64,000 nucleotides of DNA from Candidatus Multivoraceae bacterium (GCA_965223385.1 CBDCWR010000006.1:137896-201895); one strand, 5' to 3'. Positions 1,608 through 46,618 are shown, counted from the stretch's first letter. Made by a program: numbers and translations. The notes: generated by a model not told the origin, from the sequence alone.

Positions 1608-3167
1608 CTAGATCACGGCCTCGATGAGCGACGGCCCCGGCTGCCCGAGCGACGCCTCCAGAGCCCGGTTGAGCTCCTCGGCCGTCGTGGCCTGCCAGGC
1701 GGGCATACCCATCCCCTCGGCCAGCTTCACCCAGCCGATGTCGGGATTGGAGAGGTCGAGCATGCTCATGGCCTTCGGCCCCGGCGAGTGGGCGCCGACG
1801 CGGTCGAACTCGATCTGGAGGATGGCGTACTTGCGGTTGGAGAAGATGACGGTGGTGATGTCCAGCGCCTCGCGCGCCTGTGTCCACAGAGCCTGCACCG
1901 TGTACATGCCGCTGCCGTCCGCCTGCAGGTTGATCACCCGACGATCGGGGCAGGCGACGGCGGCGCCCGTGGCTGCGGGAAGGCCGTAGCCGATGGAGCC
2001 ACCCGTGAGGATGAGCCAGTCGTGGGGTGGGCAGCCCATCGTGGAGAAGTAGGTCCCCGCCCCGGACATGCCGCCTTCGTCCACGACGATGGCGTTCTCC
2101 GGCATGAGGGCGCCGACGGCCGCGCCGATCGTTCGGGGGTCGAGAGCGCCCGTCGGCAGATCGGGCCGCGCGGCGGCAACCAGCTCGGGCTCCGTGCCAC
2201 CGGCACCCACCGCCTCGACCAGCGCCTCGAGCGAGCCTTCGATGTCGCCGTCGCGCTCGACCAGCGTGTGCAGAGTGCAGTCTTCCGGTGTCAGCCAGTT
2301 CGGCTTGTCCGGATAGGCGAAGAAGGTGACGGGCGCCTGCGTGCTGATGAGGACGATGTGCTTCGTGCCGGCGAGCACCTCGGCCGCCTGCTCGCCGAAG
2401 TAGGGCAGGCGCTCGACGTCGACGCGCCCGGCGCCGCGCTCGATGCGCGGCACGAAGGTGTCCATGATCAGGCGGGCGCCGGTCTTCTGCGCCACCCGAT
2501 TCGCCAGCGCCGTACGCTCGGCGGTGAGCGGGCCGTTGATCAGCATGACCGCTGGCTCGCCGTTCATCAGCGCGCGCGCTGCGCCCTCGACCTGGTTGCT
2601 GTCGACCGGCCTGGGTGCCGGAGCGGGGAGTGGCTTGGCGGAGGCGGTCGTGCGGTTCCAGGCGGTGTCGGCCGGCAGGATGAGCGTGGCCACCTGGCCC
2701 GGCGGCGTCAGCGCGGCCTGCACGGCGAGAGCGCCGTCCGCCGCGACGTGGTCGGCCGACTCCGAGGCCCGCACCCAGCCGGAGACAGGCGCCGCAATTC
2801 CGGCGACGTCGGAGCTGAGTGGAGCGTCGTACTGCCGATGGTAGGTGGCGTGGTCGCCCACCACGTTGACGACCGGGGTGCGGGCCTTCTTCGCGTTGTG
2901 GAGATTGGCGAGCCCGTTGCCGAGACCCGGGCCCAGGTGGAGCAACGTTGCGGCCGGCAGCCCTTTCATGCGCGCATACCCGTCCGCCGCGCCTGTGACG
3001 ACCCCCTCGAACAGACCGAGCACGCAGCGCATCTGGGGGTTGGTATCGAGCGCGGCCACGAAGTGCATCTCGGACGTGCCCGGGTTCGTGAAGCAGACGT
3101 CCACTCCGGCGTCGACGAAGGTCTGCACGAGGCTCTCGGCGCCGCTGCGGTCCTGGGCTTCGGTCAT
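1608..3167 (-). CDS. thiamine-diphosphate-dependent enzyme, acetolactate synthase large-subunit-like
   Basis: A 519-aa ORF shows the ThDP Pyr, middle and PP domains (GDGS...N motif near the C-terminus: LQADGSGMYTVQALW...FSNRKY). The sequence AAGGAG sits upstream of the ATG at 3167. Confidence 0.85.
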   Translation of the reverse strand: MTEAQDRSGAESLVQTFVDAGVDVCFTNPGTSEMHFVAALDTNPQMRCVLGLFEGVVTGAADGYARMKGLPAATLLHLGPGLGNGLANLHNAKKARTPVVNVVGDHATYHRQYDAPLSSDVAGIAAPVSGWVRASESADHVAADGALAVQAALTPPGQVATLILPADTAWNRTTASAKPLPAPAPRPVDSNQVEGAARALMNGEPAVMLINGPLTAERTALANRVAQKTGARLIMDTFVPRIERGAGRVDVERLPYFGEQAAEVLAGTKHIVLISTQAPVTFFAYPDKPNWLTPEDCTLHTLVERDGDIEGSLEALVEAVGAGGTEPELVAAARPDLPTGALDPRTIGAAVGALMPENAIVVDEGGMSGAGTYFSTMGCPPHDWLILTGGSIGYGLPAATGAAVACPDRRVINLQADGSGMYTVQALWTQAREALDITTVIFSNRKYAILQIEFDRVGAHSPGPKAMSMLDLSNPDIGWVKLAEGMGMPAWQATTAEELNRALEASLGQPGPSLIEAVI

Positions 3168-3321
3168 GGCGATCTCCTTGAGGGATGGGCTCGGCGTGCT
3201 TTTCTAGCACGCGCGTGCCCTCCCAGGTGGCGTGCCGTCGGTCCAGGGATCGTCGGATCGCCGTTCTGGGGACGTCTATCTCTCCGCGACACCCACAGCG
3301 AGAGGATCGAAGAGGAGTGAC

Positions 3322-4253: not shown

Positions 4254-6233
4254 CTAGTGGTAGTACGCCATGCAGCCCGGCTCCACCTTCTGCGGCATGC
4301 CCGGTGGGTACTCGTTGGTCCAGAACTCCTTGATCGCCTGGCAGTTGATCAGCGTCGAGACGCCCTGGTCGGCCGCGAGCCGATAGCTCCGCTCGAGCGC
4401 CTTTTTGAAGTCTTCAGCGCGGTGCACGTACTCGCCGCGCGCGCCGAGGCCTTCGGCGATCTTCTCGTAGCGCAGGTTCTCCTGGAACAGGTACATGTGC
4501 TGGGAGCGCGCGCTCCGGCGCCCCGAGCCCCACACGCCCCAGGCGTTGTTGTTGTACACGACCAGCACCACCGGCAACTTGTACTTGGCCAGCGTCTCGA
4601 TCTCCATGCCCGAGTAGGCGATGCCTGCGTCGCCGGTGATGGCCACGATCGGCGCTCCCTGGTGTGCCTTCTGCACGCCCGCGCCGTTCTGGACCGCCGC
4701 GGCGGCGCCGACCGCGTAGCCGACGTCGGGTCCGATGGCGCCGTACTGGTAGGCACCATTGAGGATCTGGCCCGGCCTCAGTGCCTGCAGATAGCGCCGC
4801 GTCGCGCGTGCGATGCCGTAGCCACCAGACACGACGGTCGTCTGGTCGGCCGGGAGGTCACCGCCGTAGAGCACGTCGGCGAGACCCTGTGCGATCACGA
4901 ACGGGTGCACGCACTCCGCCTTGGCGCTGTGCTGTAGACCAAGCGCCGTGTACTCCTCGTTCTCTTTTTGGAACTTCGCGCGCGCCGCGGCGAGCTCTGC
5001 GCGCCAACTGTCGCGGGAGGTCTTCGGGAGCGCGTTCTCGAGTGCCTCGAGGAAGGCGCGCTCGCCCGCCACGATGCCGAGATCGATCGGCAGATTGCGG
5101 CCGATGTCCTCCGGCTCCGGGTCGACGCGGATGATGCGCGCGTCGGGGTCGAACGCGTACTCCCCGGCGCCCGGCATGCAGTACTGCCCTACGAGGATCA
5201 CGAGGTCGACGGAAAGCAGGGCGTCGGGCGCAACGGAGGCGGACAGCGGGTGATCGTCGGGGAAGTGCCCGCGGCTCGGGCCGGACTCGACCACCGCGAT
5301 GTCCGCCCGTTCGGCGACCGCCCGGAGAGCGTCCCAAGCGCGGTCGTAGAAGCAGCCGGTGCTGGCCACGATCATCGGGCGCTCGGCCGTGCGGATCATC
5401 GCGACGGCCTTCTCGATGTCCTTGGGGCCGGGGTGGGGTTTGTTGTCGCTGCGGTAGCGCGATTTGTCGTAGAAGTACTCCAGGTCTTCGGGGCTCTCGA
5501 AGCGCGCGCGGGCGACCTCGCCGGGAAAGTCGAGGTGGACGGGGCGCGGCACGCCGCTCCGCAGCTGCCGGAAGGCATAGGCGGCGTACTCCCACACCCG
5601 ATTGGGCGTGATGAGGCGCTTGCCCCACTTCTTCAGGCCCTCGGTGGTCGGCTGCTGGTAGCCGCGCTGGATGTTGCGCTCGGTGTCGTCTCCGCCGACC
5701 GTCATGTTGCTCGCGAGCACGAGCAGCGGCGTGCGCGCCGAGTTCGCCGCGCCGATGTTCATGATCATGTTGGTGAAGCCCGGACCTTCGGTGCCCGAGC
5801 AGGCGGCGATCTCACCGCTCGAGCGGATGAAACCGTCGGCCGCGGCACACATGTTGCCCTCGGTGCGGCCGCCGTAGCTCGGGATCCCCTCCGCCGCGAT
5901 CGAGTTGATGACCGTGTAGTTGCCCGGCGCGCAGAAGAGTGCGCCGAGCTCCTCCTCGCGGCAGGCCCGTGCGAAGACCTGGGCGCCGATCATCGGGAAC
6001 TCGGCCGGCGTGGGGGCCTGGGCGCGCGACTCCGGAATCTCGGCGGGGATCTGGATCGGAGGCTCTGTGGTGTCTCCGGCGGCGGCCGCTCCGGCGGCTG
6101 CCAGGGGCGTCGCCTGCGTGGTCGCGAGCGCGGCCACGGCGGCGCCACCCTTGGCCGACGACTCGAGGAAGCCGCGGCGGGAGACCCCGCCGGCCGTCTT
6201 CGCAGGGCTGTTCTGGGTGCCTTTCTTCTTCAT
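4254..6233 (-). CDS. Tat-exported thiamine-diphosphate-dependent enzyme (ALS/POX/benzoylformate decarboxylase superfamily)
   Basis: The internal start MKKKGTQNSPAKTAGGVSRRGFLESSAKGGAAVAALA has the canonical twin-arginine motif SRRGFL. The ThDP domains are present (GTEGPGFTNMIMNIGAA; GDAGIAYSGMEIETL...VVYNNNAWG). A gaggag RBS is present. Confidence 0.85.
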   Translation of the reverse strand: MKKKGTQNSPAKTAGGVSRRGFLESSAKGGAAVAALATTQATPLAAAGAAAAGDTTEPPIQIPAEIPESRAQAPTPAEFPMIGAQVFARACREEELGALFCAPGNYTVINSIAAEGIPSYGGRTEGNMCAAADGFIRSSGEIAACSGTEGPGFTNMIMNIGAANSARTPLLVLASNMTVGGDDTERNIQRGYQQPTTEGLKKWGKRLITPNRVWEYAAYAFRQLRSGVPRPVHLDFPGEVARARFESPEDLEYFYDKSRYRSDNKPHPGPKDIEKAVAMIRTAERPMIVASTGCFYDRAWDALRAVAERADIAVVESGPSRGHFPDDHPLSASVAPDALLSVDLVILVGQYCMPGAGEYAFDPDARIIRVDPEPEDIGRNLPIDLGIVAGERAFLEALENALPKTSRDSWRAELAAARAKFQKENEEYTALGLQHSAKAECVHPFVIAQGLADVLYGGDLPADQTTVVSGGYGIARATRRYLQALRPGQILNGAYQYGAIGPDVGYAVGAAAAVQNGAGVQKAHQGAPIVAITGDAGIAYSGMEIETLAKYKLPVVLVVYNNNAWGVWGSGRRSARSQHMYLFQENLRYEKIAEGLGARGEYVHRAEDFKKALERSYRLAADQGVSTLINCQAIKEFWTNEYPPGMPQKVEPGCMAYYH

Positions 6234-6289
6234 CGCCGGATCTCCTCGTCGGCTGTCCTGTCTCGGGTCTCGTCGGAGGCGCTTCGGAG

Positions 6290-6820
6290 TCAACCGCCGC
6301 CGGCGGGCTCGGGGCGCAGCTGGGCTGGTCCGATGCTCCGCAGGAACTGCACGAGCTGCCAGATCTGGCCGTCCTCCAGCTGCAGCTGGAACGCGGGCAT
6401 GTCGTAGCCGGCCCCTTGCTTGATCGAGCGGAAGATCTCGCCGTCGGTGGCGCCGTAGCGGTACACGTCGGGATTTGTCAGGTCGGTCGCCTCGAAGTCG
6501 AAGTTGTCGAGCGCGCGGCCGTCCTTGCCGTGGCAGTTCTGACACAGGCGAAGGTAGTGCTTCTTGCCCGCCGCGATGGTCTCGGGAACGTAGGGTGCGG
6601 GGTTGGCGACCTCACGCGCCTGCTCCTGGGTGAGCTCCTCGGCGCGCGTGAGCGATGTGGTGTGCCACGTGTGAGGCGCCGTGCCGTGGATGTAGCCGAC
6701 GGCCGCGCAGCGGATGATCGTCGCTTCGAGGCTCGGCGTGCTGTACGCAGGGGGTGGTGAGGTGCACGTCACCAGGAGCGCGCACGCCAGAGCACCGCCG
6801 ACAGTGGACTTCGGACTCAT
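6290..6820 (-). CDS. monohaem c-type cytochrome, secreted or lipoprotein
   Basis: MSPKSTVGGALACALLVTCTSPP is the signal peptide. A single CQNCH haem-binding motif is present. The gene sits 56 nt upstream of the Tat-ThDP enzyme on the same strand. Confidence 0.8.
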   Translation of the reverse strand: MSPKSTVGGALACALLVTCTSPPPAYSTPSLEATIIRCAAVGYIHGTAPHTWHTTSLTRAEELTQEQAREVANPAPYVPETIAAGKKHYLRLCQNCHGKDGRALDNFDFEATDLTNPDVYRYGATDGEIFRSIKQGAGYDMPAFQLQLEDGQIWQLVQFLRSIGPAQLRPEPAGGG

Positions 6821-9038: not shown

Positions 9039-9175
9039 AGTAGACTGCTGCTTTCCAGCCAACAGAATTGCTTCCGCGCTCCGATTCCACGGACCGCACT
9101 TGCGCCCCGCCTTCGGCATGATGCGTGGCGGCGCGCCGGATGGCCGGCCGTGGGGAGCTCGGAGAGGAGACCGTC

Positions 9176-11245
9176 ATGAGACGGACGCTTTGGATTCAGG
9201 GCAGTACGGCGCTCGCGATGGCAGCGCTCGGGCTCGGTGCGTGCGCCCCTTCTGCGGACGTTGACGAGCCACCCCAGGAGGTGGCAGCCCAGCGCATCAC
9301 CGCTGCAGACGCCGAGCCAGGGAGCTGGCTCACCCACGGGCGGACGTACTCGGAGCAGCGGTTCTCGCCGCTCGATCAGGTCGACCTCGACTCGGTCGGT
9401 CGTCTGGGTCTCGCCTGGACGTACGACACCGGCAAGCGGCGCGGGCACGAGGCGACACCCCTCGTGGCCGACGGCGTCATGTACTTCACCTCACCGTGGA
9501 GCGTCGTGTACGCGGTCGACGCCGCCACGGGGGAGGAGAAGTGGATCTACGACCCGGACGTTCCGGGCCCCTGGGGCCGCAACGCGTGCTGTGACGTGGT
9601 CAACCGCGGAGTCGCCCTGTGGAAGGGCCACGTCTACCTCGGCACACTCGACGGCCGGCTGGTGAAGATCGACGCCGCGACGGGCGAGCCCGTGTGGGAC
9701 ATCAACACCATCGACCGTGAGCGCCCGTTCACGATCACGGGCGCACCAAGGGTCGTGAAAGGAAAGGTCATCATCGGCAACGGCGGAGCCGAGTACGGAG
9801 TGCGCGGCTACGTCAGCGCCTACGACGCGGACACCGGCGACATGTTGTGGCGCTTCTTCACCGTGCCGGGCGACCCTTCGCTGCCGTTCGAGCACGATGG
9901 CCTCGCCGAGGCGGCGGAGACCTGGAGCGGCGAGTGGTGGCACATCGGCGGCGGCGGCACGGTGTGGGACTCCATGGCCTACGACCCGGAGCTCGACCTC
10001 CTCTACGTCGGCACGGGCAACGGCACTCCCTGGGCGCGCTCGCATCGCAGCCCCGGCGGGGGCGACAACCTCTATCTGGTCTCCATCCTGGCCCTGGATC
10101 CGGACGAGGGGCGTCTGGTGTGGCACTACCAGACGACTCCCGCAGACAACTGGGACTACACGGCGACGCAGCACATCATGCTCGCGGATCTCCAGATCGA
10201 CGGGGAGCCGCGGCAGGTTCTCATGCAGGCGCCGAAGAACGGCTTCTTTTTTGTGCTCGACCGCGCGACGGGTGAGCTGATCTCGGCCGAGAAGTTCGCG
10301 CGGGTGACGTGGGCGACACACGTCGATCTCGAGACCGGGCGGCCCGTCGAGTCGGAGGAGGCCAACTACGACGAGGTGGCCCAGGTGATCTACCCCGGGC
10401 CCGGCGGCGCGCACAACTGGCAGCCGATGGCGTTCCATCCCGGGGAGGGCCTGGTCTACATTCCGGCCCACGATCGGCCGTCCTACTACGGCTTCGACGA
10501 GAACTTCGAATACACGCCGGGCGGCAACTGGAACGTCGGCCTGGGGCTGACGGACGAGGAGATCGCGAACCGTCCACCGATGGAGCGCCGCGCCTTCCTC
10601 CTGGCGTGGGATCCGGTCGCGCAGGAGGCGCGGTGGTCGCACGACCAGCCTTCGGGCTCGAACGGCGGCCTGCTCGCCACCGCCGGAGGCCTCGTCTTCC
10701 AGGGCACATCCGACGGCAAGTTTGCGGCCTACGACGCCGCCAGCGGTGAGCCGGTCTGGGACGTGCAGCTCGACATTCCGGCGCTCGCGCCGCCGGTCTC
10801 CTACGAGATCGACGGAGAGCAGTACGTGAGCATCCTTGCCGGCTTTGGCGGGGGCATCGCGCTCACCAAAGAGACGCAGGGGCGCATGTTCACCTTCAAG
10901 CTGGATGCGAACGAAGAGTTGCCCGAGGTTCCCGATCGGACGCTGGTCGTCGCCGACGTCTTCGAGCCCAGCGGGACCCCCGAGCAGATCGCACGTGGTG
11001 GCCGGCTCTACCAGCGGCACTGCCGCCGCTGTCACAACGGGCGCGGCACCATCACCGATCTGCGTTACTCCCGCGCCGCGGTGCACAACGGCTGGGACTC
11101 CATCGTGCTCGAAGGTCGCTACGGCACCATGGGCATGGACTCGTTTGCCGACGTCTTGACGCCGCGGGATGCGACGGACATCCACCGGTGGGTGATCGCC
11201 CAGATGGAAGAAGCCCGGAGCACTGCGGATGCCGATGGGCGGTGA
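9176..11245 (+). CDS. PQQ-dependent quinohaemoprotein alcohol dehydrogenase (type II ADH: PQQ propeller plus C-terminal cyt c)
   Basis: There is a lipoprotein-like signal (LGLGACAPS) and the vicinal Cys pair NACCDV. The WDYT motif indicates a Ca-type site. The C-terminal CRRCH haem c motif is present. The sequence ggagaggag sits upstream. Confidence 0.9.
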   Translation: MRRTLWIQGSTALAMAALGLGACAPSADVDEPPQEVAAQRITAADAEPGSWLTHGRTYSEQRFSPLDQVDLDSVGRLGLAWTYDTGKRRGHEATPLVADGVMYFTSPWSVVYAVDAATGEEKWIYDPDVPGPWGRNACCDVVNRGVALWKGHVYLGTLDGRLVKIDAATGEPVWDINTIDRERPFTITGAPRVVKGKVIIGNGGAEYGVRGYVSAYDADTGDMLWRFFTVPGDPSLPFEHDGLAEAAETWSGEWWHIGGGGTVWDSMAYDPELDLLYVGTGNGTPWARSHRSPGGGDNLYLVSILALDPDEGRLVWHYQTTPADNWDYTATQHIMLADLQIDGEPRQVLMQAPKNGFFFVLDRATGELISAEKFARVTWATHVDLETGRPVESEEANYDEVAQVIYPGPGGAHNWQPMAFHPGEGLVYIPAHDRPSYYGFDENFEYTPGGNWNVGLGLTDEEIANRPPMERRAFLLAWDPVAQEARWSHDQPSGSNGGLLATAGGLVFQGTSDGKFAAYDAASGEPVWDVQLDIPALAPPVSYEIDGEQYVSILAGFGGGIALTKETQGRMFTFKLDANEELPEVPDRTLVVADVFEPSGTPEQIARGGRLYQRHCRRCHNGRGTITDLRYSRAAVHNGWDSIVLEGRYGTMGMDSFADVLTPRDATDIHRWVIAQMEEARSTADADGR

Positions 11246-13764: not shown

Positions 13765-14166
13765 TCAGCGGAGTGGCGCGACCCGGAGGACCTTGCCGTC
13801 GAGCTGGGCCGCAAGCCCCTGCGACTTGAGGATCGTGGCCAGGGCGTCGGTCCAGCGCACGTCGTGCAGCTCCACGGTCACGGGGCGGCCGCGGACGCTC
13901 GGGTCGAGAACCAGGTTGACGCGCGCGAGCCGGGCGAAGGCGCGGAGCACCTCGGAGAGCTCGGCGTCTTTGAGGCTCAGCGAGATGCGGGCAACCTCCT
14001 GTTGCGCCGGCTTCGGAGCGCGCAGAGTCAGCGTCTGGCCCGAGGCGGAACGATCCGTGGTCTGAGGCGCACACAAGGTCCAGAACAGGACGAGTGCTGT
14101 GGGCAGGAGCGTACATATCGATCGAATTCTATGTCCGGGGCCCACGATAGGCTCACGCGCCCCCAT
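13765..14166 (-). CDS. small STN-domain (secretin/TonB N-terminal) protein; start uncertain
   Basis: ISLSLKDAELSEVLRAFARLARVNLVLDPSVRGRPVTVELHDVRWTDALATILKSQGLAAQLDGKVLRV matches the STN domain consensus well. It has an N-terminal hydrophobic segment. It would overlap the divergent promoter of the ccr-like gene. Confidence 0.4.
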   Translation of the reverse strand: MGAREPIVGPGHRIRSICTLLPTALVLFWTLCAPQTTDRSASGQTLTLRAPKPAQQEVARISLSLKDAELSEVLRAFARLARVNLVLDPSVRGRPVTVELHDVRWTDALATILKSQGLAAQLDGKVLRVAPLR

Positions 14167-14188
14167 CACTCGTACCAAGGAGCTCGCC

Positions 14189-16933
14189 GTGACAAAGGTC
14201 TCTGACGCCATCTGGGAGCTCGGCGCCCTGCCGACGCTCGCACGCCAGGTGCCGGCTTCCATGAAGGCCCTGACCCTTCACCGGGATCGCTACGGCGCCC
14301 CGCGCGACGTCCTGGCCTGCGAGATGGTGGCCGTTCCGCGACTCGGGCCGGCGGATGCGCAGCGTGTCCTCGTGAGCATCCTGGCGAGTGGCCCCAACTT
14401 CAACACGAACTTCGCGGCCCTCGGCCTGCCGGTGCCTGTCTTTCCGCGCGGCGACTCCGAGACCCTCCACATCCCCGGGAGTGACGCGCTCGGCATCGTC
14501 GTCGATGCCGGCCCGGCGGTGGGCTCCGTCAGGGTCGGCCAGGCGGTGATCCTCGACTCCTGGACGGGGAGTACGATCCGAGGCTACGAGACCCACGACG
14601 GCTTCAATGCGCAGTTTGCGGTGGTCGACGAGGAGCGGGCGATTCCCGTTCCGCCGGAGATGCAGGACCAGAGCCCCGAGCAGCTGGCCGCGATGCTGCT
14701 CACCTACGGAACGGCGTACCGCTGCGTCGTCGAGCGGCTGCGCTTCCAGCCCGGGCAGTCGATGCTGGTCCTCGGTGGCGGCAAGGGCACGAGCTACGCG
14801 GGAGCACAGATCGCCAAGGCGCTGGGCGGTCGCGTCGTGCTCATGGGCTCGAATCCGGACCTTGGCGCCGAGCTCATCGAGCGCGGGGTCGCCGACGCGT
14901 TCGTGAACCGTCGCGAGATCCCGCGGGAGGTGTACGGCGTGCTCGAGGAGGGCGAGAGCCACGCGGAGTGGATCGCGCGCACGCAACCCTTCCGCGACGC
15001 CATCTTCGATGCCAACGAGGGTCAGCCGGTCGACAAGGTGTTCGAGCACACCGGGGGCAAGAACTTCCCGCTCCTGGCGTCGGTGCTGTCGGACGGCGGC
15101 GGTTTGGCCTTCTTCGGCGCCACCGGGCAGGGTCTCAAGGGGGAGTACAAGGAGACCTTCTTCTACGACCACCGGCGCTTCGTGCTCGACGCGCGCTGGG
15201 TGTGGATGCGCCAGAAGCAGGTACTGTTCCGCCAGGCGGAGCCTGGGGAGATCTTCCGGGAGATTGGCCTGCTTCCCGGCCGTCGGGGGCTCATCTGGGG
15301 GGCCGATGCATACGCGCTGAGCTTTGCGAAAGCGGCGCGCGAGCGCCAGGCCGACCTCGCGGTGATCGCCTCGCACAGCGAGGAGGCGGATGGGATCGAG
15401 CGGATGGTGGAGCTTGGAGTCGAGCGTGCCCACATCCTCGACCGGGACACCTTCACGCTGGTGTCGGACATGCCGGACCCTCTGCTCGAGGAAGGCACGC
15501 CCAACCCGGCCTACGACCGCGACTTCATGGGCGCCGCCAAGGCGATCGGTCGTGCGATCTGGGGTGTCTTCGGACCGCGCGTCAGCCCCGACTTCATCGT
15601 GGAGCGGCCGGATCAGAGCACGCTGCACTACAGCACGTTTCTGGCGCGCGACTTCGATGAGAACGACGCCATGCCGACCGGCTTCGTGGTGGCACGAGGT
15701 GCGAGTGACCTCGACGTGCTCGGCTCGCACATGTACCACGCCTCGCAGGCGCGCGAGGTCGTGCGCCTGCTGGCGGAGAAGCGCATCGTCATGCAGCAGG
15801 AAGATCTCGACATCGTCTCGCTGGCCGAGCTGCCCGAGGTGCAGCAGAAGATGCTCGACGGCACGATGGAGAAGCCGAAAGGAGTCGCGCTGGTCCAGGC
15901 CGACCGCGCCGGGAGGCCGATCTCCGAATACGAAGCCGCCTACCTGGGGGACGTCGTGCAGGAGTCGGATCCGCAGGCCGGCCAGTTCATCGACGTGCGG
16001 GTCCTGCACGGCACGGCGCTGGTCACGCTCGACCGCCCGGCGGCGCTGAACGCTCTGAGCGAGGAGCTTCTGGCGCAGCTCGGCGCGGTCGTACGCGACG
16101 TCTCCAGCTCAGGGGCGCTTGGAGGCAAAGAGGTCGCCTCGATGATCGTGCGCGGCGCCGGGCGCGCCTTCGTCGCCGGTGCGGACATCCAGGTGTTCAT
16201 AGGCAAGACGGCAGCGCAGCTCGAGACGCTCGCGGCCGACAACATGGCCGTCTTCTCGGCGCTCGAGGAGCTTCCCATTCCCGTGGTCTCGCTGATCGAC
16301 GGCTTTGCGCTCGGCGGCGGGAACGAGCTCGCGATGGCGACCCACTACCGGATCGTCACGGAGAACGCGGCTCTGGGCCAACCCGAGGTGAAGCTGGGGA
16401 TCATCCCCGGCTACGGCGGGATGCAGCGGCTGCCCCGGCTCGTGGGGCCGCGCAAGGCCGCCGAGCTCTCGGTCAACGGCGAATCGATCGGCCCGGACGA
16501 GGCGGTTGCACTGGGTCTGGCGCACGAGACCTGCCCTTCGAGCACGGCGCTCGCGCGGGCGTTTGTGGTGGCGCAGGCCATGGCACGAGGCGAGATGGAC
16601 GTCGAGCGCGCCGACTGGGGTGCCCTCGCCGCTGCGCAGCAGGGCGCCATGGCGGCCCTCCTCGCGGACGCGGACGTTGCGGACCTCATGTCCTCGGAGC
16701 CTCCGGCGAAGGTCCAGGCGCAGGATCTCGTCGCCGCCCGTCGTTACGCTGCGCGCATCGCGCTCGAGGCGCTCCGGGACGGCTACGGCCTGGACTTTCC
16801 GCAGGGTCTCGCGAACGATGCGCGGCTCTTTGGCGAGGTCACGGCGTCACCCTCGGGGCAGTGCTGGGCCGGTAAGTTCCTCGCCAAGGCGCCCGAGCAG
16901 TCCTCCTTCCTGACGCTCCTCGACTCGCGCTAG
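14189..16933 (+). CDS. crotonyl-CoA carboxylase/reductase-like MDR enoyl reductase fused to C-terminal enoyl-CoA hydratase (crotonase) domain
   Basis: GTG start with an aaggag RBS. The N-terminus (VSDAIWELGALP...MKALTLHRD...SGPNFNTNFAALG...HIPGSDALGIVVDAGPAV) matches Ccr. The Rossmann motif is VLGGGKGTSYAG. The C-terminal ~260 aa are classic crotonase (AFVAGADIQ; GFALGGGNELAM; GIIPGYGGMQRLPRLVG). Confidence 0.85.
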   Translation: MTKVSDAIWELGALPTLARQVPASMKALTLHRDRYGAPRDVLACEMVAVPRLGPADAQRVLVSILASGPNFNTNFAALGLPVPVFPRGDSETLHIPGSDALGIVVDAGPAVGSVRVGQAVILDSWTGSTIRGYETHDGFNAQFAVVDEERAIPVPPEMQDQSPEQLAAMLLTYGTAYRCVVERLRFQPGQSMLVLGGGKGTSYAGAQIAKALGGRVVLMGSNPDLGAELIERGVADAFVNRREIPREVYGVLEEGESHAEWIARTQPFRDAIFDANEGQPVDKVFEHTGGKNFPLLASVLSDGGGLAFFGATGQGLKGEYKETFFYDHRRFVLDARWVWMRQKQVLFRQAEPGEIFREIGLLPGRRGLIWGADAYALSFAKAARERQADLAVIASHSEEADGIERMVELGVERAHILDRDTFTLVSDMPDPLLEEGTPNPAYDRDFMGAAKAIGRAIWGVFGPRVSPDFIVERPDQSTLHYSTFLARDFDENDAMPTGFVVARGASDLDVLGSHMYHASQAREVVRLLAEKRIVMQQEDLDIVSLAELPEVQQKMLDGTMEKPKGVALVQADRAGRPISEYEAAYLGDVVQESDPQAGQFIDVRVLHGTALVTLDRPAALNALSEELLAQLGAVVRDVSSSGALGGKEVASMIVRGAGRAFVAGADIQVFIGKTAAQLETLAADNMAVFSALEELPIPVVSLIDGFALGGGNELAMATHYRIVTENAALGQPEVKLGIIPGYGGMQRLPRLVGPRKAAELSVNGESIGPDEAVALGLAHETCPSSTALARAFVVAQAMARGEMDVERADWGALAAAQQGAMAALLADADVADLMSSEPPAKVQAQDLVAARRYAARIALEALRDGYGLDFPQGLANDARLFGEVTASPSGQCWAGKFLAKAPEQSSFLTLLDSR

Positions 16934-29173: not shown

Positions 29174-30922
29174 CTAGTCGGGAAGGGCGAACACGAACAG
29201 GTTGTTGCCCGAGCTCGGCTTGAGCTCCGGGGTGAGCCCCACGCGCAGCGCCGCCGACGGGCTGCCGGTGCTCGCGGCGACGTACTGCCGGCCGTCGACG
29301 GCGAACGAGATCGGGAACCCGGTGAGCGGCGAGCCGAGGTTGATCTTCCAGAGCACGTCGCCGGTCTCGTGGTCGAGCGCCATGAAACGACCGTTCATGT
29401 CACCCACGAAGATCAGACCGCCAGCGGTCGCAAACAGCGACATGGTCGCCGCGCGCTGCTCGAAGACAAACAGCGACTTCCCGGTCGATGCCGAGACCGC
29501 GTGGACGGTGCCGCTCTTGTCGGTGCCGGGCGCGATCTGGTGCTCGGCGTCGAGCGCGTAGATGGGGAGTCGCCCGGCCTTCGTGGCGGTCATCGTGGCG
29601 CACGCGTTGCGCATGGGCATGTACATCGCGTTGGTGATGGGGCTGTAGGCGCCGGCCTGCCAGTCTTTGCCGCCGATGTAGGTCGGGCACACGAGCGCCT
29701 TCTGCTCGAGCTCGCTGAACACCACCTCGGAGTTCTCGCTCACGGCGCCCGTGGCGCCGTCGATCATGTCGATCACGTTCTGGTACACGGTCGGCCGCGC
29801 CCAGAGGAACTCCCCTGTCTCGCGGTCGAGCGTGTACACCACGCCGGTCTTGCCCGGGATGCCGGTCATCACCTTGCGCCGCTCGCCGGGCTCGATGCGG
29901 GGGTTGATCCAGGCGACCTCGTCTGGGCTCGGCGCCACCTCGGTGTCGACGAGCAGACGCTCGAACGGGTGGTCGAGATCCCAGTGGTCGTTCAGGTGCT
30001 GGTAGTGCCAGGCGATCTCGCCCGTCGCCCCCCGCAGAGCGAGCGTGGAGTTGTGGTACAGGTGTCGGTTGTCTTTGCTGCTCAGCAGGAACTTCGGCGC
30101 AGGAGAGGTGACCGAGGTACCGATGTAGACGAGGTCGAGCTCGGGGTCGTAGCTCGGCACCATCCACGTGCCGACGTGGGTGCGCTTCTCGAACGGCACG
30201 TCGCCCCACGTCTCGTCACCGGGCTCGCCCGGGGCGGGTACCGTGCGGCGGCGCCAGAGCTCTCGCCCGGTCTTGGCGTCGTGCGCCGTGACCACGCAGG
30301 CGTCGGGGCCGCCGCGCGGAAGGCAGCTGCGCCCCGAGAAGATCTTGCCGCCGCCCACGATCGGCCCCGAGCCCTGCATCGTGGGGTGCGTGTCGTAGTT
30401 CAGGATCTCGGTCTGCCACGCCTGCTCCCCGGTCTCGGCGTCGAGCGCAAAGACGAAGCCGTCGGTGCTCGTGTCGAGGATCAGGCGACCGTAGATCGCG
30501 AGGTTGCGGTTGTTGGCCGTGAGGCCGAGCTTGCCCTGTTTGACGAGGCTCTCGTGCCGCTCGCGGCTGTGCTCCCAGATCAGATCGCCTGTCACCGCGT
30601 CGATCGCCTGCGTCACGTCGGCCGGGTTTGGCATGTAGAGAACGCCGCCGTACGCGAGCGGCGTGCCCTGCTGCCGCCCATCGTGCAGAGCGCGCGTCCA
30701 CACGAGCCGCAGGTTCTGCACGTTGCTGCGGTCGATCTGTTCGAGCGGGCTGAACGCCCAGCCGTCCTGTGTACGTCGCCACATGAGCCAGTCGTCGTCG
30801 GACGGGCTCTGCAGCATCTCGTCCGTCACCGGGACAAAAGTGCGGCCCGCGGAGCCCGTCTGGGCCTCGAGAAGCCATGGGGTGACCGCAAGGGCGGCGC
30901 CGAGAAGAGCCGTGCGCAGCAT
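29174..30922 (-). CDS. PQQ-dependent dehydrogenase, methanol/ethanol family-like, with DxD (WDLD) lanthanide-type signature
   Basis: A signal peptide is present. Eight-bladed propeller motifs are present (W...G). HLNDHWDLDHP has Asp two residues after the catalytic Asp, as in XoxF/PedH. There is no vicinal CC. Confidence 0.8.
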   Translation of the reverse strand: MLRTALLGAALAVTPWLLEAQTGSAGRTFVPVTDEMLQSPSDDDWLMWRRTQDGWAFSPLEQIDRSNVQNLRLVWTRALHDGRQQGTPLAYGGVLYMPNPADVTQAIDAVTGDLIWEHSRERHESLVKQGKLGLTANNRNLAIYGRLILDTSTDGFVFALDAETGEQAWQTEILNYDTHPTMQGSGPIVGGGKIFSGRSCLPRGGPDACVVTAHDAKTGRELWRRRTVPAPGEPGDETWGDVPFEKRTHVGTWMVPSYDPELDLVYIGTSVTSPAPKFLLSSKDNRHLYHNSTLALRGATGEIAWHYQHLNDHWDLDHPFERLLVDTEVAPSPDEVAWINPRIEPGERRKVMTGIPGKTGVVYTLDRETGEFLWARPTVYQNVIDMIDGATGAVSENSEVVFSELEQKALVCPTYIGGKDWQAGAYSPITNAMYMPMRNACATMTATKAGRLPIYALDAEHQIAPGTDKSGTVHAVSASTGKSLFVFEQRAATMSLFATAGGLIFVGDMNGRFMALDHETGDVLWKINLGSPLTGFPISFAVDGRQYVAASTGSPSAALRVGLTPELKPSSGNNLFVFALPD

Positions 30923-31055
30923 GGGACCGACCTTTCTGTTGGGGAGAAGGTCAACCATCGTAGCGGATGGCAGCGGACGCGGCCGCCGCCGTCGACCGAG
31001 GTCCTTGCGGCGAAGGGCCACTCACGACGTCCGAGGCAGACGGCCTCGGCCTCTT

Positions 31056-36168: not shown

Positions 36169-36547
36169 GGAGCCTCCTTCATAGAAGATGCTGCAGCGAC
36201 ATACGTGCTGGAGCATACCGATGCCGTCGGAGTGAGTGGTGTACCGCAGACGATGAGAGGATGACGCCCTACTTCCGGAGGGCGAATCAAGATGGCGCTG
36301 CAAGGGGACCCGTGGACCGGGCCGATCTCTTCGGGGAGGCCGGCTTCGAGGGAAACACGGGGTCCGCAGGAGTGAGGACGACCTCCTCGAGCTGCTGCAC
36401 GACGTCGACGGCGCCCGCGCGGGCGACCCGGGTCGATGGACCGGAGTGCCCGACTTCTCTCGACGGCGCTTGCGCTATAGCTGCCACCTGGCGAACTGTT
36501 CGGAGTGCGTGCGGCGGTGTGGAACGGGTGTCCGCCCGATGCGCAAC

Positions 36548-36597
36548 AGGGATGCCGTCCGGCTGCTAGGGTCCTCGACCAGACAAGGGGAATGCGA
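36548..36597. repeat. copy 2 of the duplicated leader segment, here preceding the intact BamB-like gene start
   Basis: The sequence is tccggctgctagggtcctcgaccagacaaggggaATGcgaATGaac. Confidence 0.6.
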
Positions 36598-37875
36598 ATG
36601 AACAAAAAGGCCATGGCGCTCGGGCTCGGAATGGCACTGGCCGCCTGCCTCGTGCTCGCGGAATCGAACGACTGGTACCAGTGGGGAGGCCCGGACCGGA
36701 ACTTCCAGGCGTCTCCGGACGGCATCGCCGACGCGTGGCCCGAAGGCGGTCCGAAGGAGCTGTGGAGCAGGACGCTCGGGGACGGTCACTCAGCGATCGC
36801 GGCCGTGGGCGGCAAGCTCTACACGATGTACCGGGCGCGGCCCGAGGGTCTGGCCGAGAACGAGTTCGGCGGCGAAGAGGCGATCATCGCGCTCGACGCC
36901 GCCACCGGCGAGACGCTCTGGGAGCACACGTACGCCTCCGAAGAGATGAACTTCCGCTTCGGCGCCGGGCCTCACTCCACGCCGCTCGTGGTGGGCGGTC
37001 GCGTGTTTGCCGTCGGTACAAACAAGCAGTTCCACGCGCTCGACGCCGACACGGGCGAGGTGCTGTGGGCGTACGACCTGGTCGAGGAGATGGACGCGAC
37101 CCCCGCGCTCGTGCGCTCACAGGTGAAAGCCGGCTACGGGTCGAACCCGATCGCCTACGAAGACACGGTGATTGCGGTCGTTGGAGGCGAAGGTCAGGCC
37201 GTGGTGGCGTTCGACCAGAGCGACGGCAAGGTGGTCTGGAAGACCGGCGACTTCCTCGTCGCCTGCGCCGCGCCGATCCTCATCGACGTCGACGGCCAGA
37301 CGCAGCTGGTCGTGGTCGGCGGCGAAACGGCGTACGGGCTCGACCCGGCGACCGGCGACGTGCTCTGGCAGCACGACCAGCAGGCGCCCGGCGACATGAA
37401 CAACAGCACGCCGGTCTTCGGCGACAACCGCCTCTACATGTCGGTCGCCTACGGCATCGGCGGGCGCGCGCTCGACCTGTCGCGCTCCGCCTCGGGCAGC
37501 GAGGCGAAAGAGGCGTGGTTCAGCAAGGACCTCCAGTTGATGTTCAGCAACGGCCTGCTTCTCGGCGACTTCGTCGTGGGATCGTCGGGCGACTTCGGCC
37601 CGGCGTTCATGGTGGCGCTCGACTGGAAGACCGGCGAGCGGCTCTGGCGCGAGCGCGGCTTCGGTCGTAGCTCGCTCCTCCAGCTCGGCGACAAGACGCT
37701 CATCCTCGACGAAGACGGCACGCTCTCTCTGGCGAAGCTCAGCCGCGAAGGTCTCGAGGTAATCAGCCAGGCCGAGGTGCTGACCGGACGCGCGTGGACC
37801 GTGCCAACCCCCGTGGGCAGCACGATCTACCTGCGCGATCGGCAGGTGATCAAGGCCCTCGACCTGGGCGAGTAG
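36592..37875 (+). CDS. secreted PQQ-repeat beta-propeller protein (BamB-like)
   Basis: Signal peptide MRMNKKAMALGLGMALAACLVLA. Repeated propeller motifs are present (GKLY...DAATGETLW). Confidence 0.75.
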   Translation: MRMNKKAMALGLGMALAACLVLAESNDWYQWGGPDRNFQASPDGIADAWPEGGPKELWSRTLGDGHSAIAAVGGKLYTMYRARPEGLAENEFGGEEAIIALDAATGETLWEHTYASEEMNFRFGAGPHSTPLVVGGRVFAVGTNKQFHALDADTGEVLWAYDLVEEMDATPALVRSQVKAGYGSNPIAYEDTVIAVVGGEGQAVVAFDQSDGKVVWKTGDFLVACAAPILIDVDGQTQLVVVGGETAYGLDPATGDVLWQHDQQAPGDMNNSTPVFGDNRLYMSVAYGIGGRALDLSRSASGSEAKEAWFSKDLQLMFSNGLLLGDFVVGSSGDFGPAFMVALDWKTGERLWRERGFGRSSLLQLGDKTLILDEDGTLSLAKLSREGLEVISQAEVLTGRAWTVPTPVGSTIYLRDRQVIKALDLGE

Positions 37876-40441: not shown

Positions 40442-42307
40442 CTACTTCGCGCGGTAGACGATGAGCGCGTTGCCCGGCATCTGACCGAACAGGCTGTAGC
40501 CGGAGTTGACCAGCAGCAGGTCGTCCACCAGCTGGACGCCGGAGCTGTCGATCGACCCGCCGTGCGCGTCGATTCCGTTCACCGCCTCGAGCTCCCGCTT
40601 CGTCTGGTCCTGCCAGAGCACTTCACCCGTCGCCGCGTCGAAGGCGAACACGCGGCCGTCGAGCGCGCCCGCGAAGACCAGCTCCGAGTTGGACATCGGC
40701 GCCGCGGAGAACGCAAACTGGAAGGGGCACTCGGGCCAGGGGGTCTTGGACGCGCGGAGGGCCGCGACATCGAGCTCGCAGGCCCGCTCGGCCTTGTGCT
40801 CCCACAGCGTTTCGCCGCTCAGGAGATCGAGTGCGTAGAGCCCGGGCTTGGGGTCATAGCCCTGCCTCGGAAAGGCGGGGTCGTTGATCGGCACGAAGAC
40901 GCGGTCGCCCGCGACGGTCAGGCCCCAGTGCACTCCGCCGAGAGCGGAGCCGGCGCCGACCCGGTTCTGCCACAGCACCTCACCCGTGTCGGGATCGAGC
41001 GCGTGCACCTCGCCCGACTTCTGGCCGGCCACCACGATGTCCTTGCCGCTCGAGTGCGTGGCGAGGACCGCGGCTGCACCGAAGTCGAAGTCGGGGCCGT
41101 CTTCTTCCGGGCAGTTGGGGCCCTTGCGTCGGCCACAGGCCATGTTCCAGGCGTCCTCGCGTGTACCCTGGAACGACCAGCGGATCGCCCCGGTGGTCAT
41201 GTCGAGCGCCAGGATCGAGTCGCTGTGCTGCGTGGCGGGTGACGACGTGTTCTCGCCGGTGCCGATGTAGAGCTGGTTGCGTGCGGCGTCGATCGTGGGT
41301 GTGGTCCACACCGGCACCCCCGACGGCCCCCACTGCTGCACGCCCTCGCTCGAGACGTAGGTCGGCACCGCCTCTTTGGTCATGTGCGTGGTCCAGATCA
41401 CTTCGCCCGTGGCGGCGTCGAGCGCGAGCACCGCACCGCGGCTCTTGCAGCACTCGTACTTCGGGTTGGTCGCCAGCACCACGCCGAAGGCCGACACGGG
41501 GACGAAGAGGCGGTCGCCGCGGTCGTCCGAGAACGGGACGGGGGTGCCCGTGGTGGTGTTCGCCGGGTGCTGGGCAACGGACCGGCTCCACAGCGGTTCA
41601 CCGGTGTGCGCGTTGATGGCGTAGACGGTGGCGCCGTTGTCGCCCACGAACAGCGCGGTCTGGTCGCCCGCCTTGCCGAGCGCCATCGAGGTGCGGAGGG
41701 TCGCCTCCGTGTCGTGGTTCCACTTGATGCAGCCACTGTCCCGGTCGAGGGCGTACACCTGACCGGACACGCCGGCGACGAAGACCGTGTCTTCTGTGAC
41801 GACGGGCTGAGATCTCGCCTCCGCGACGTCCGGAATCGCGAAGACCCATGCCGGCTCCAGGCGCCCGGCGTTGGCCTTCGTGATGGTGGAGGTGGGCTGG
41901 TGGCGGGAGTTCGCGAGGTCGATGCCCCAACCGCCGACGCCGACGCCCCCGGTGCTCACTGTCTTGCCCTTGCAGAAGGCCGTCTCCGGCATGGCGTCGT
42001 GCTCCTTGGCGCCACCCGCGCTCAGGTACTCCGAGATCGTCATCATCTGGTCCGACGTGAGCATGGAGGCCTGCTCCTGCATCTTGCCGGACGTCATCGA
42101 GGTCAGGACCTGGTCCATGCTCATCTGCTGGAGCGCGCCGAGAAGGGGGCCCTCCGAGCGGCCCTGGCTGCGGTGGCAGGAGAGGCAGTGTCTGCGAAAG
42201 AGCTGCTCGCCGTCGTCGCCGGAGGCGCCTTCCTGGGCGGGGGCGGAAGCTGCGAACGGTGCTTGGAGGAGCAAGAGCGAGATGACGAGTGAACGGCGAA
42301 GAAGCAT
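40442..42307 (-). CDS. cytochrome c-PQQ dehydrogenase (polyvinyl-alcohol-dehydrogenase-like quinohaemoprotein)
   Basis: A signal peptide is present. N-terminal CLSCH haem c motif. PQQ propeller with vicinal YECCKS. Confidence 0.85.
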   Translation of the reverse strand: MLLRRSLVISLLLLQAPFAASAPAQEGASGDDGEQLFRRHCLSCHRSQGRSEGPLLGALQQMSMDQVLTSMTSGKMQEQASMLTSDQMMTISEYLSAGGAKEHDAMPETAFCKGKTVSTGGVGVGGWGIDLANSRHQPTSTITKANAGRLEPAWVFAIPDVAEARSQPVVTEDTVFVAGVSGQVYALDRDSGCIKWNHDTEATLRTSMALGKAGDQTALFVGDNGATVYAINAHTGEPLWSRSVAQHPANTTTGTPVPFSDDRGDRLFVPVSAFGVVLATNPKYECCKSRGAVLALDAATGEVIWTTHMTKEAVPTYVSSEGVQQWGPSGVPVWTTPTIDAARNQLYIGTGENTSSPATQHSDSILALDMTTGAIRWSFQGTREDAWNMACGRRKGPNCPEEDGPDFDFGAAAVLATHSSGKDIVVAGQKSGEVHALDPDTGEVLWQNRVGAGSALGGVHWGLTVAGDRVFVPINDPAFPRQGYDPKPGLYALDLLSGETLWEHKAERACELDVAALRASKTPWPECPFQFAFSAAPMSNSELVFAGALDGRVFAFDAATGEVLWQDQTKRELEAVNGIDAHGGSIDSSGVQLVDDLLLVNSGYSLFGQMPGNALIVYRAK

Positions 42308-42594
42308 GGCGGTTTCCTGTCTCGGAGAACGATTCCGCACGGGAGAGCTCCGTGCGGGGCGGAAGAGCGAACGTCGAGGCTATCCCGTTTGCGCGCCTGG
42401 ATGGATGGTGACAAGAGGCTGGGTCGTCGTGCGTCCGGTGCGTCGATGGGATCCCGCTGGAAGCGCGCTCGTCGCCAGAGACGCTCGTATACTGCCTGCG
42501 CTCACCCACCACGAGGACCGCGCCGACCAACCGTTGCCGACCCGGTAGCGGAGCGAAGCGGCGCCTTGCCGCCACCGCAGGACCGGAGACCCTC

Positions 42595-45733: not shown

Positions 45734-45737
45734 CCGG

Positions 45738-46598: not shown

Positions 46599-46618
46599 CG
46601 GTGGTACCTCGGGTTGGT

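Follow-up and report, generated by a model that had tools for sequence, protein, structure and literature searches.

A gene for a predicted 3-hydroxyacyl-CoA dehydratase/enoyl-CoA reductase fusion with a second cofactor lobe in a Candidatus Multivoraceae bacterium

The subject of this report is a single gene in a stretch of 64,000 nucleotides (nt) from the Candidatus Multivoraceae bacterium assembly GCA_965223385.1 (CBDCWR010000006.1, 137896-201895). The whole stretch is called the window below, and positions are counted from its first letter. The gene encodes a protein of 914 amino acids (aa) in which a reductase of the crotonyl-CoA carboxylase/reductase (Ccr) or enoyl-CoA carboxylase/reductase (ECR) type is followed by a crotonase-fold enoyl-CoA hydratase. 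Judged from its sequence, it is probably a bifunctional 3-hydroxyacyl-CoA dehydratase and NADPH-dependent enoyl-CoA reductase, that is, a propionyl-CoA synthase (PCS) without the ligase and with the remaining domains in reverse order. It is a member of a widespread family (enoyl reductase-enoyl-CoA hydratase, ER-ECH) seen in uncultured bacteria, and PCS is the nearest characterised relative.

The fusion gene and its domains

In the open reading frame (ORF) list of the window, the longest form of this plus-strand frame (14099-16933) would give 944 aa. The GTG at position 14189 is the start of the 914-aa product, which is identical (100%) to the public protein P0001. The G+C content at third codon positions is 0.88, like that of the other genes in this window of 68% G+C. 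Neither promoter-like nor terminator-like sites were detected around the gene. An AlphaFold2 model, built on an alignment of 94 homologues (mean column identity 70%), reached a predicted local distance difference test score (pLDDT) of 90.8 and a predicted template modelling score (pTM) of 0.89 over all domains; the latter indicates a defined domain arrangement only. The gene is real and intact. The initial annotation described a single polypeptide of 915 aa; the uninterrupted frame stands and the length is 914 aa. It also named a splitting frameshift or stop, or an insertion made by the assembly, as grounds for doubt. No stop or frameshift was found inside 14189-16933 and full-length homologues are numerous, which excludes an assembly-made insertion for practical purposes. 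The idea that the long frame is an artefact (a frameshift, a misassembly of two ordinary genes, or an inserted segment) can be dismissed: nothing was found in its favour, the same architecture including the second cofactor lobe recurs, at 890-930 aa and 60-78% identity, in over 400 clusters of proteins from independent assemblies and in the best 80 genome loci (see below), one confident model spans every domain, and a Shine-Dalgarno sequence and start codon are present.

The reductase part covers aa 1-595 and is of the Ccr/ECR type. The Pfam scan proposed at the outset returned all three expected domains: ADH_N at aa 58-155, ADH_zinc_N at aa 204-317 and ECH_1 at aa 608-805. Residues 6-345 align to residues 17-353 of M. 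extorquens Ccr (4gi2) with E = 2.4e-32, which bears out the N-terminal likeness to Ccr first read from the sequence. This alignment includes the Ccr-specific N-terminal extension with its DLYELGEIPPLG-type start and reaches the Ccr motif YVWMRQKRI, here WVWMRQKQV, which closes lobe 1 of the cofactor domain. The glycine-rich motif of lobe 1 is VLGGGKGTSYAG; its residues G196, G197, G198, G200, T201 and S202 are invariant in the 94-member alignment, to which all statements of invariance in the fusion protein refer.

The segment singled out in the initial annotation (LIWGADAYALSF...) is located at about aa 352-512. As a profile, aa 352-512 matched residues 208-323 of Ccr 4gi2 (E = 1.3e-7), the Rossmann domain of AntE (E = 6e-6) and residues 1599-1729 of PCS 6eqo (E = 3e-3). 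The Ccr-like protein P0192 (431 aa, from the representative library) aligns twice, with its residues 19-340 to aa 8-319 and with its residues 208-417 to aa 361-576, the latter collinear (pairwise E = 1.8e-14, whole-library E = 1.4e-5); both lobes thus map onto the same Ccr segment. E134 and H514 are separated by 380 residues, compared with 194-200 in Ccrs, which puts the extra piece at about 185 aa. The strand-helix order of lobe 1 recurs in lobe 2 of the model. The "insertion" is best read as a second copy of the Ccr cofactor (Rossmann) domain, about 185 aa long, which arose by tandem duplication and has diverged. The initial annotation had placed an extra lobe of about 200 aa between the Rossmann region and the C-terminus of the medium-chain dehydrogenase/reductase (MDR) fold; the lobe is there, slightly shorter than stated, and its nature as an internal duplication had been missed.

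The counterpart of the glycine motif in lobe 2 is degenerate (GLIWGADAYALS, where Ccr has LIWGASGGLG), and W370, G371 and D373 are invariant. Because only lobe 1 keeps the glycine-rich motif, NADPH is presumably bound there, and lobe 2 would have a structural role. Ccrs form homo-oligomers (tetramers in K. setae Ccr, KsCcr), and lobe 2 may stand in for the Rossmann domain of the neighbouring subunit. A search with aa 346-600 (lobe 2 and the C-terminal catalytic piece) gave 43 matches with E <= 1e-3 among 1.84 billion representatives, so that the sequence of this region appears nearly private to the ER-ECH family. For the C-terminal catalytic piece (aa 513-595), single-sequence and profile searches of the PDB gave no Ccr match, only a weak in-register match to an MDR C-terminus (E = 0.15). 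It was therefore assigned through the P0192 alignment, in which "VLGSHMYHASQA" is aligned with "LQGSHFAHLKQA".

The crotonase part covers aa 598-914, including a helical tail. Both glutamates of the motifs GGGNE713LAM and GQPE733VKLG are invariant, and from the known crotonase motifs we take them to be the counterparts of the catalytic E144 and E164 of the rat hydratase. The PDB sequence matches of this part are enoyl-CoA hydratases and the 3-hydroxypropionyl-CoA dehydratase 5zai (E = 1.7e-32). Residues 806-914 align with PCS residues 1100-1192 and with the linker regions of FadB/FadJ, and are all-helical in the model. Crotonase motifs had been claimed for the C-terminal 260 aa; the motifs were found with both catalytic glutamates, in a part that is longer than stated (about 315 aa with the tail). 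The coordinates of all features are given in Table 1.

Table 1. Features of the fusion gene, of the window and of related loci (prefix L).
Feature	Position	Strand	Basis or remark
Complete reductase-hydratase fusion gene	14189..16933	+	914 codons + stop; ORF list, identical public protein, AlphaFold2 model
Shine-Dalgarno-like AAGGAG	14178..14183	+	5 nt ahead of GTG start; read from sequence
Ccr-type N-terminal extension and first part of MDR catalytic domain (aa 1-165)	14189..14683	+	4gi2/AntE alignment, ADH_N, residue conservation
N72/T73	14402-14407	+	Ccr alignment, residue conservation
S98	14480-14482	+	Ccr alignment, residue conservation
I130-R-G-Y133-E134	14576-14590	+	Ccr alignment, residue conservation
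Rossmann lobe 1 (aa 166-345), presumed NADPH site	14684..15223	+	ADH_zinc_N; alignment to Ccr cofactor domain
Glycine-rich motif of lobe 1	14768-14803
Rossmann lobe 2 (aa 352-512), the "insertion"	15242..15724	+	profile matches to Ccr, AntE, PCS; P0192 alignment
Degenerate glycine motif of lobe 2	15287-15322
GSH514M	15722-15733	+	H514 = Ccr His365 equivalent, placed via P0192 alignment
C-terminal return to MDR catalytic domain (aa 513-595)	15725..15973	+	P0192 alignment; weak MDR match
Crotonase-fold enoyl-CoA hydratase core (aa 598-805)	15980..16603	+	ECH_1 E = 2.6e-40; PDB hydratase matches
Catalytic E713	16325-16327	+	motif GGGNE713LAM
Catalytic E733	16385-16387	+	motif GQPE733VKLG
Helical C-terminal extension of hydratase (aa 806-914)	16604..16930	+	PCS and FadB/FadJ alignments; model
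ORF with STN / GspD-N0 domain	13765-14262	-	upstream of fusion gene
Thiamine-diphosphate enzyme	1611-3203	-
Thiamine-diphosphate enzyme	4257-6611	-
PQQ-type gene	9122-11245	+
PQQ-type gene	29177-31021	-
PQQ-type gene	36481-37872	+	beta-propeller protein, may be BamB-like
PQQ-type gene	40445-42379	-
DUF1302, LolA-like/DUF1329, MMPL gene cluster	44228-47551	-
131-aa VOC/glyoxalase gene adjoining ER-ECH in closest relatives	L090:7494-7886, L091:7464-7856, L007:9515-9904, L005:12844-13233
In-frame fusions of about 2,550-2,580 aa	L085:10001-17659, L086:10001-17671
Further in-frame fusions	L047, L048, L050, L055, L061, L062, L070, L076, L081, L084
N-terminal 538 aa of partner	L061:12716-14329		pLDDT 80-94
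ADP-forming CoA ligase (672 aa)	L087:3481-5499, L088:3459-5477	-	near sister-clade ER-ECH/partner
AMP-forming CoA ligase (538 aa)	L085:17681-19297, L086:18112-19728	-	near sister-clade ER-ECH/partner

Active site and comparison with known enzymes

The CO2 pocket of KsCcr is formed by N81, F170, E171 and H365, with T82 and S119 orienting N81, and the F170Y variant shows 100% carboxylation (PMC6628652). The alignment check of these residues, suggested in the initial annotation, was positive: the counterparts of Asn81, Phe170, Glu171 and His365 are N72, Y133, E134 and H514, all invariant in the 94 sequences, and the second-shell residues T73 and S98 are found in 90 and 92 of them, respectively. 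Also invariant are two bulky residues, I130 (three positions ahead of Y133) and M515 (next to H514 on its C-terminal side). At these positions crotonyl-specific Ccr has Ile and Phe, and CinF, which accepts C8 substrates, is reported to have Ala and Gly. Since I130 and M515 are bulky and invariant, a small acyl pocket and C3-C4 substrates are suggested. The numbering offset of -4 in the CinF comparison was confirmed (PMC6628652). An invariant Arg131 in the ER-ECH family takes the place of a Trp in Ccr and of a Gln in PCS.

PCS (Erythrobacter sp. NAP1 / Chloroflexus aurantiacus, 6EQO) was the top PDB sequence match to the whole protein (E = 2.3e-50). Its residues 907-1192, hydratase and helical tail, align to aa 610-891, and its residues 1266-1729, the reductase through the second-lobe region, to aa 34-489. 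It was also the top Foldseek match (E = 8e-35, 656-666 aligned columns, about 22-26% identity), followed by Ccrs with about 600 columns and a gap for lobe 2 (target-normalised TM-scores 0.67-0.79). A crotonase with helical extension and a reductase with duplicated Rossmann lobe are common to both proteins. PCS has 1,850 aa in the order ligase-dehydratase-reductase, whereas the window protein has 914 aa in the order reductase-dehydratase and no AMP-binding (ligase) domain was found in it. The Ccr N-terminal extension is kept in the ER-ECH family, in which it differs from PCS. PCS has Asp (D1302, counted from the alignment) where the family and KsCcr have Thr. On these grounds the fusion can be described as a permuted, ligase-less PCS variant that is not without precedent. 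The initial annotation did not recognise it from the ethylmalonyl-CoA pathway; a hydratase-reductase fusion with duplicated lobe was already known within PCS (6EQO).

Ccrs and other ECRs (KsCcr 6OWE, M. extorquens Ccr 4GI2, AntE, CinF) have the N-terminal extension, the MDR fold, the CO2-pocket residues (Asn, Tyr/Phe, Glu and His, with the Ser as well) and the motifs NFN/NYN, GYET, WMRQK and GSH in common with the ER-ECH family. They are stand-alone proteins of about 430-450 aa with a single Rossmann domain, unlike the window protein with its duplicated lobe and fused hydratase. Ccr has Phe after the His where the family has Met. The second-shell Thr is common to KsCcr and the family, whereas M. 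extorquens Ccr has Gly. The pocket is intact in this comparison, and more Ccr-like than that of PCS. The 3-hydroxypropionyl-CoA dehydratase and acryloyl-CoA reductase of Metallosphaera sedula (5ZAI) and Nitrosopumilus catalyse the same two-step chemistry as proposed here, but as separate proteins and not as a fusion.

Distribution of the family and genomic context

The clusters mentioned above are the matches among the 5.8 billion proteins searched. Nearly all of the 120 highest-ranking ones have lengths of 890-930 aa, with 61-78% identity and 97-100% coverage, and the fullest annotation on family clusters is "enoyl-CoA hydratase-related protein". Relatives are encoded in 139 stretches (one genome per GTDB species), of which the best 80 were analysed as genome loci. 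The metagenome-assembled genomes (MAGs) are labelled Acidobacteriota, Thermoanaerobaculia, Acidimicrobiales, Gaiellaceae, Pseudomonadales, Desulfobacterales, Deferrimicrobiaceae, Methylomirabilis, Accumulibacter and others, as well as Desulfatibacillum and Desulfuromonadales. In a neighbour-joining tree every form fused to, or in an operon with, the partner described below falls into one clade. The window protein falls into another, from MAGs labelled Acidimicrobiales, Acidobacteriota, Actinomycetes and Gammaproteobacteria, in which all forms are stand-alone. No description of the ER-ECH family or of the fusion of about 2,580 aa was found in the literature searched, which excluded the central PCS papers, where two-domain relatives are possibly mentioned.

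Two other fusions were noted. In P0193 (711 aa, representative library) an Ecr-like MDR reductase is fused with a hydratase of a different fold, the MaoC type (R-specific); this is a convergent, analogous architecture and as such is counted in favour of the proposed bifunctional function. P0196 (939 aa, same library) is a distant reductase-ECH fusion with 35% identity and matches to ADH_zinc_N and ADH_zinc_N_2.

The lobe-2 search also found P0164, a protein of 2,552 aa in which ER-ECH is followed by two short-chain dehydrogenase/reductase (SDR) modules. When the C-terminal 1,662 aa of P0164 were searched against 84 related loci with tblastn, this partner sequence was found directly after the ER-ECH gene in 22. 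The frame continues without a stop in 16 of the 22, giving fusions of about 2,580 aa arranged as ER(double lobe)-ECH-540-aa domain-SDR module-SDR module. In the other six a stop is followed by a separate partner gene 21-36 nt downstream (L028, L043, L044, L045, L060, L067). A database search with the partner gave 107 clusters, and where contexts were examined it was always fused to ER-ECH or directly after it. The fused and operon loci share the gene order GcpE, SIR2, SCP2, CoaE, AlaDH, an ADP-forming acyl-CoA synthetase that is not always present, CSD, ER-ECH, partner, and probably represent one lineage despite their varied labels.

In the partner, of about 1,665 aa, a 540-aa N-terminal domain precedes two modules of about 555-570 aa, each led by an SDR domain. 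The best multidomain matches of the partner in the PDB are the bifunctional malonyl-CoA reductases 8hjw (residues 4-214, aligned with the second module) and 8hi4 (residues 583-791, aligned with the first). Malonyl-CoA reductases (8HJW, 8HI4, 6K8V) have, like the partner, tandem SDR modules each with a long extension; the window carries no such gene. The partner differs in its module order, which is reversed (C-like before N-like), and in the additional N-terminal domain. Pfam and PDB sequence searches gave no hit for that domain, nor is a match to it visible in the Foldseek results, where crotonase and SDR matches filled the list for the model of which it is a part. The prediction for it in L061 is well folded, and it has invariant His/Glu/Cys-containing motifs, HPILEW and PHMVAVLCES. 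It might supply the missing CoA-activating step. CoA ligase genes of the ADP-forming and the AMP-forming type lie nearby on the opposite strand in some of these loci (Table 1), and are candidates for the ligase function that PCS has in cis. Malonyl-CoA reductase makes 3-hydroxypropionate and PCS consumes it in the same pathway, the 3-hydroxypropionate bi-cycle.

In the window, the fusion gene is followed by genes for a PilZ protein, an RraA-like protein, a gamma-glutamyltranspeptidase and a VWA protein. The window contains no ethylmalonyl-CoA pathway genes. Clustering of the ORFs of related loci and Pfam scans of the window gave no operon partner for the clade of the window protein, and close relatives of the gene are also mostly solitary. 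In the closest relatives a VOC/glyoxalase gene adjoins ER-ECH (Table 1); the window has no copy of it, and its product did not match the NCBIfam model for methylmalonyl-CoA epimerase, the function considered for it. Upstream, on the minus strand, lies a small ORF in which nothing but a C-terminal STN / GspD-N0 domain (as at the N-terminus of secretins or TonB receptors) could be recognised. Its longest form overlaps the start of the fusion gene by about 70 nt, and it may be a fragment or start further in.

Elsewhere in the 64 kb there are three genes for pyrroloquinoline quinone (PQQ)-dependent dehydrogenases, two with a fused cytochrome c domain, and a fourth for a PQQ-repeat protein. Two thiamine-diphosphate enzymes and a tannase are also encoded; in one of the former (4257-6611) the open frame reaches about 200 codons upstream of the TPP_enzyme_N domain, as an N-terminal extension or mere upstream sequence. 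A further cluster comprises DUF1302, LolA-like/DUF1329 and MMPL-family genes, a set typical of the export of outer-membrane lipids or hydrophobic compounds in Gram-negative bacteria. Together with the STN-domain ORF, this cluster suggests a diderm host rather than an actinobacterium.

Proposed function and significance

In the proposed reaction the C-terminal crotonase would use its Glu713/Glu733 pair to convert a short 3-hydroxyacyl-CoA into the 2-enoyl-CoA. The likeliest substrate would be 3-hydroxypropionyl-CoA, giving acrylyl-CoA, with (S)-3-hydroxybutyryl-CoA, giving crotonyl-CoA, as the alternative. The reactive enoyl-CoA would be handed to the N-terminal Ccr-type reductase of the same chain, which would transfer hydride to it from NADPH in Rossmann lobe 1. 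Such channelling, with or without carboxylation, had been put forward as a possibility in the initial annotation. The resulting enolate would be either protonated to propionyl- or butyryl-CoA, or captured by CO2 to give (2S)-methyl- or ethylmalonyl-CoA. Lobe 2, in place of a neighbouring subunit's Rossmann domain, would allow the reductase to work inside the fusion. As in PCS, a hydratase and an irreversible NADPH-dependent enoyl reductase on one chain imply the direction from 3-hydroxyacyl-CoA through enoyl-CoA to acyl- or carboxy-acyl-CoA. 3-Hydroxypropionyl- and acrylyl-CoA are favoured because of the derived features shared with PCS, the small acyl pocket and the fusion of relatives to a malonyl-CoA-reductase-like protein. 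Since the reductase half resembles Ccr more than PCS, crotonyl-CoA has to be taken seriously as an alternative.

Several observations weigh against this assignment. The reductase half scores 115 bits against genuine Ccr and 84 bits against PCS, and the hydratase 132 bits against a stand-alone hydratase and 101 bits against PCS; each half is nearer to stand-alone enzymes, and the kinship with PCS is therefore old. The best reductase model, the NCBIfam Ccr equivalog TIGR01751, gave 180.1 bits, below its cut-off of 378.55. Direct comparison of lobes 1 and 2 was not significant (BLAST E = 6.7, hhalign E = 0.27, both alignments in register), for which reason the duplication rests on the separate Ccr match of each lobe. 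A loop of about 17 aa before the GYET motif, present in Ccr and PCS, is absent from the ER-ECH family, and the model is unreliable (pLDDT < 50) at aa 129-134, where the loop is gone. The neighbours of the window gene (the STN-domain ORF, the PilZ, RraA-like, gamma-glutamyltranspeptidase and VWA proteins, and the PQQ dehydrogenases) are uninformative, and the Pfam scans of the window revealed no CoA ligase or transferase gene near it to supply the substrate. The similarity of the SDR partner to malonyl-CoA reductase is confined to the catalytic SDR domains, and the generic SDR 4dyv scores at least as high, so that "malonyl-CoA-reductase-like" is a lead and not a statement of membership. The partner is never present in the clade of the window protein, which makes any transfer of function from the sister clade indirect. 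The best 80 of the 139 loci all derive from MAGs, with no cultured isolate among them.

Whether the reductase also incorporates CO2 has to be weighed separately; this is possible, at somewhat less than an even chance. The protein would then be a true reductive carboxylase with a built-in hydratase, converting 3-hydroxybutyryl-CoA to ethylmalonyl-CoA or 3-hydroxypropionyl-CoA to methylmalonyl-CoA (2S), a possibility taken seriously here but not thought the likelier outcome. The four invariant pocket residues and the nearly invariant second shell speak for it, as does Y133, since KsCcr F170Y is a full carboxylase (PMC6628652). The second-shell Thr is that of KsCcr, whereas Asp occupies the position in PCS, whose physiological role is that of a reductase. 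Genuine Ccr gives a better score than PCS with the N-terminal half, in which the Ccr extension is also retained. On the other hand, the Asn and the Tyr-Glu pair, at least, are present in PCS too, an enzyme that mainly reduces; its carboxylase activity was reported as latent only and had to be engineered (PMC10176493). The pocket residues therefore do not suffice for carboxylation. The score far below the Ccr cut-off argues in the same direction, and the deletion before GYET, in a poorly modelled region, could admit water to the site. Ethylmalonyl-CoA pathway genes are lacking in the window, and the VOC gene of the closest relatives was not recognised as the epimerase.

A plain, non-carboxylating dehydratase-reductase like PCS, by which acrylate or 3-hydroxypropionate would be detoxified or assimilated to propionyl-CoA with the toxic acrylyl-CoA enclosed, is plausible, although the balance tips against it. 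PCS is nearest by fold and by the shared derived features (duplicated lobe, extended hydratase), and proteins of the sister clade are fused to the tandem SDR partner. Against this, the protein has no ligase domain and the window no adjacent ligase gene, a CO2 pocket that is invariant and Ccr-like, with Thr73, would not be expected in an enzyme for which CO2 has no importance, and PCS is absent from the lobe-2 sequence matches, the kinship being distant.

A further-reaching idea is that the family represents a natural reductive acrylyl-/crotonyl-CoA carboxylase with its own dehydratase, the proteins of about 2,580 aa in the sister clade forming a line from malonyl-CoA to methylmalonyl- or propionyl-CoA; this is considered unlikely.

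It is improbable that the substrates are instead medium-chain, branched or alicyclic acyl-CoAs of anaerobic hydrocarbon or fatty-acid metabolism and that the resemblance to short-chain enzymes is merely familial. Many homologues come from MAGs labelled Desulfobacterales, Desulfatibacillum and Desulfuromonadales, groups known for such metabolism, and genes of branched-chain-type ABC transporters lie near the ER-ECH gene in about 26 loci. The transporter genes are, however, on the opposite strand and in one lineage only, I130 and M515 are bulky as in crotonyl-specific Ccr, and the best hydratase matches are short-chain enzymes.

Among known CO2-fixing enzymes, ECRs have been described as the fastest, and PCS, which shields a toxic intermediate, is a textbook example of a protein nanoreactor. 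The ER-ECH family indicates how a PCS-like nanoreactor may be assembled, by duplication of a cofactor domain followed by shuffling of domains. It offers a compact candidate for the direct conversion of 3-hydroxyacyl-CoA to alkylmalonyl-CoA, which would be useful for synthetic CO2-fixation cycles. If the conversion of 3-hydroxypropionyl-CoA to methylmalonyl-CoA is true, CO2 would be fixed without the ATP cost of a biotin carboxylase. If the line from malonyl-CoA to methylmalonyl- or propionyl-CoA is true, the synthetic HOPAC logic would have a counterpart in nature. The 2,580-aa fusions point to a 3-hydroxypropionate-type route in lineages for which genome surveys have reported no key enzymes of such a pathway (PMC9386147). 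If the further-reaching idea above holds, uncultured Acidobacteriota, Acidimicrobiia and Deferrimicrobia-like bacteria would possess a module for CO2 assimilation or 3-hydroxypropionate that has so far gone unrecognised.

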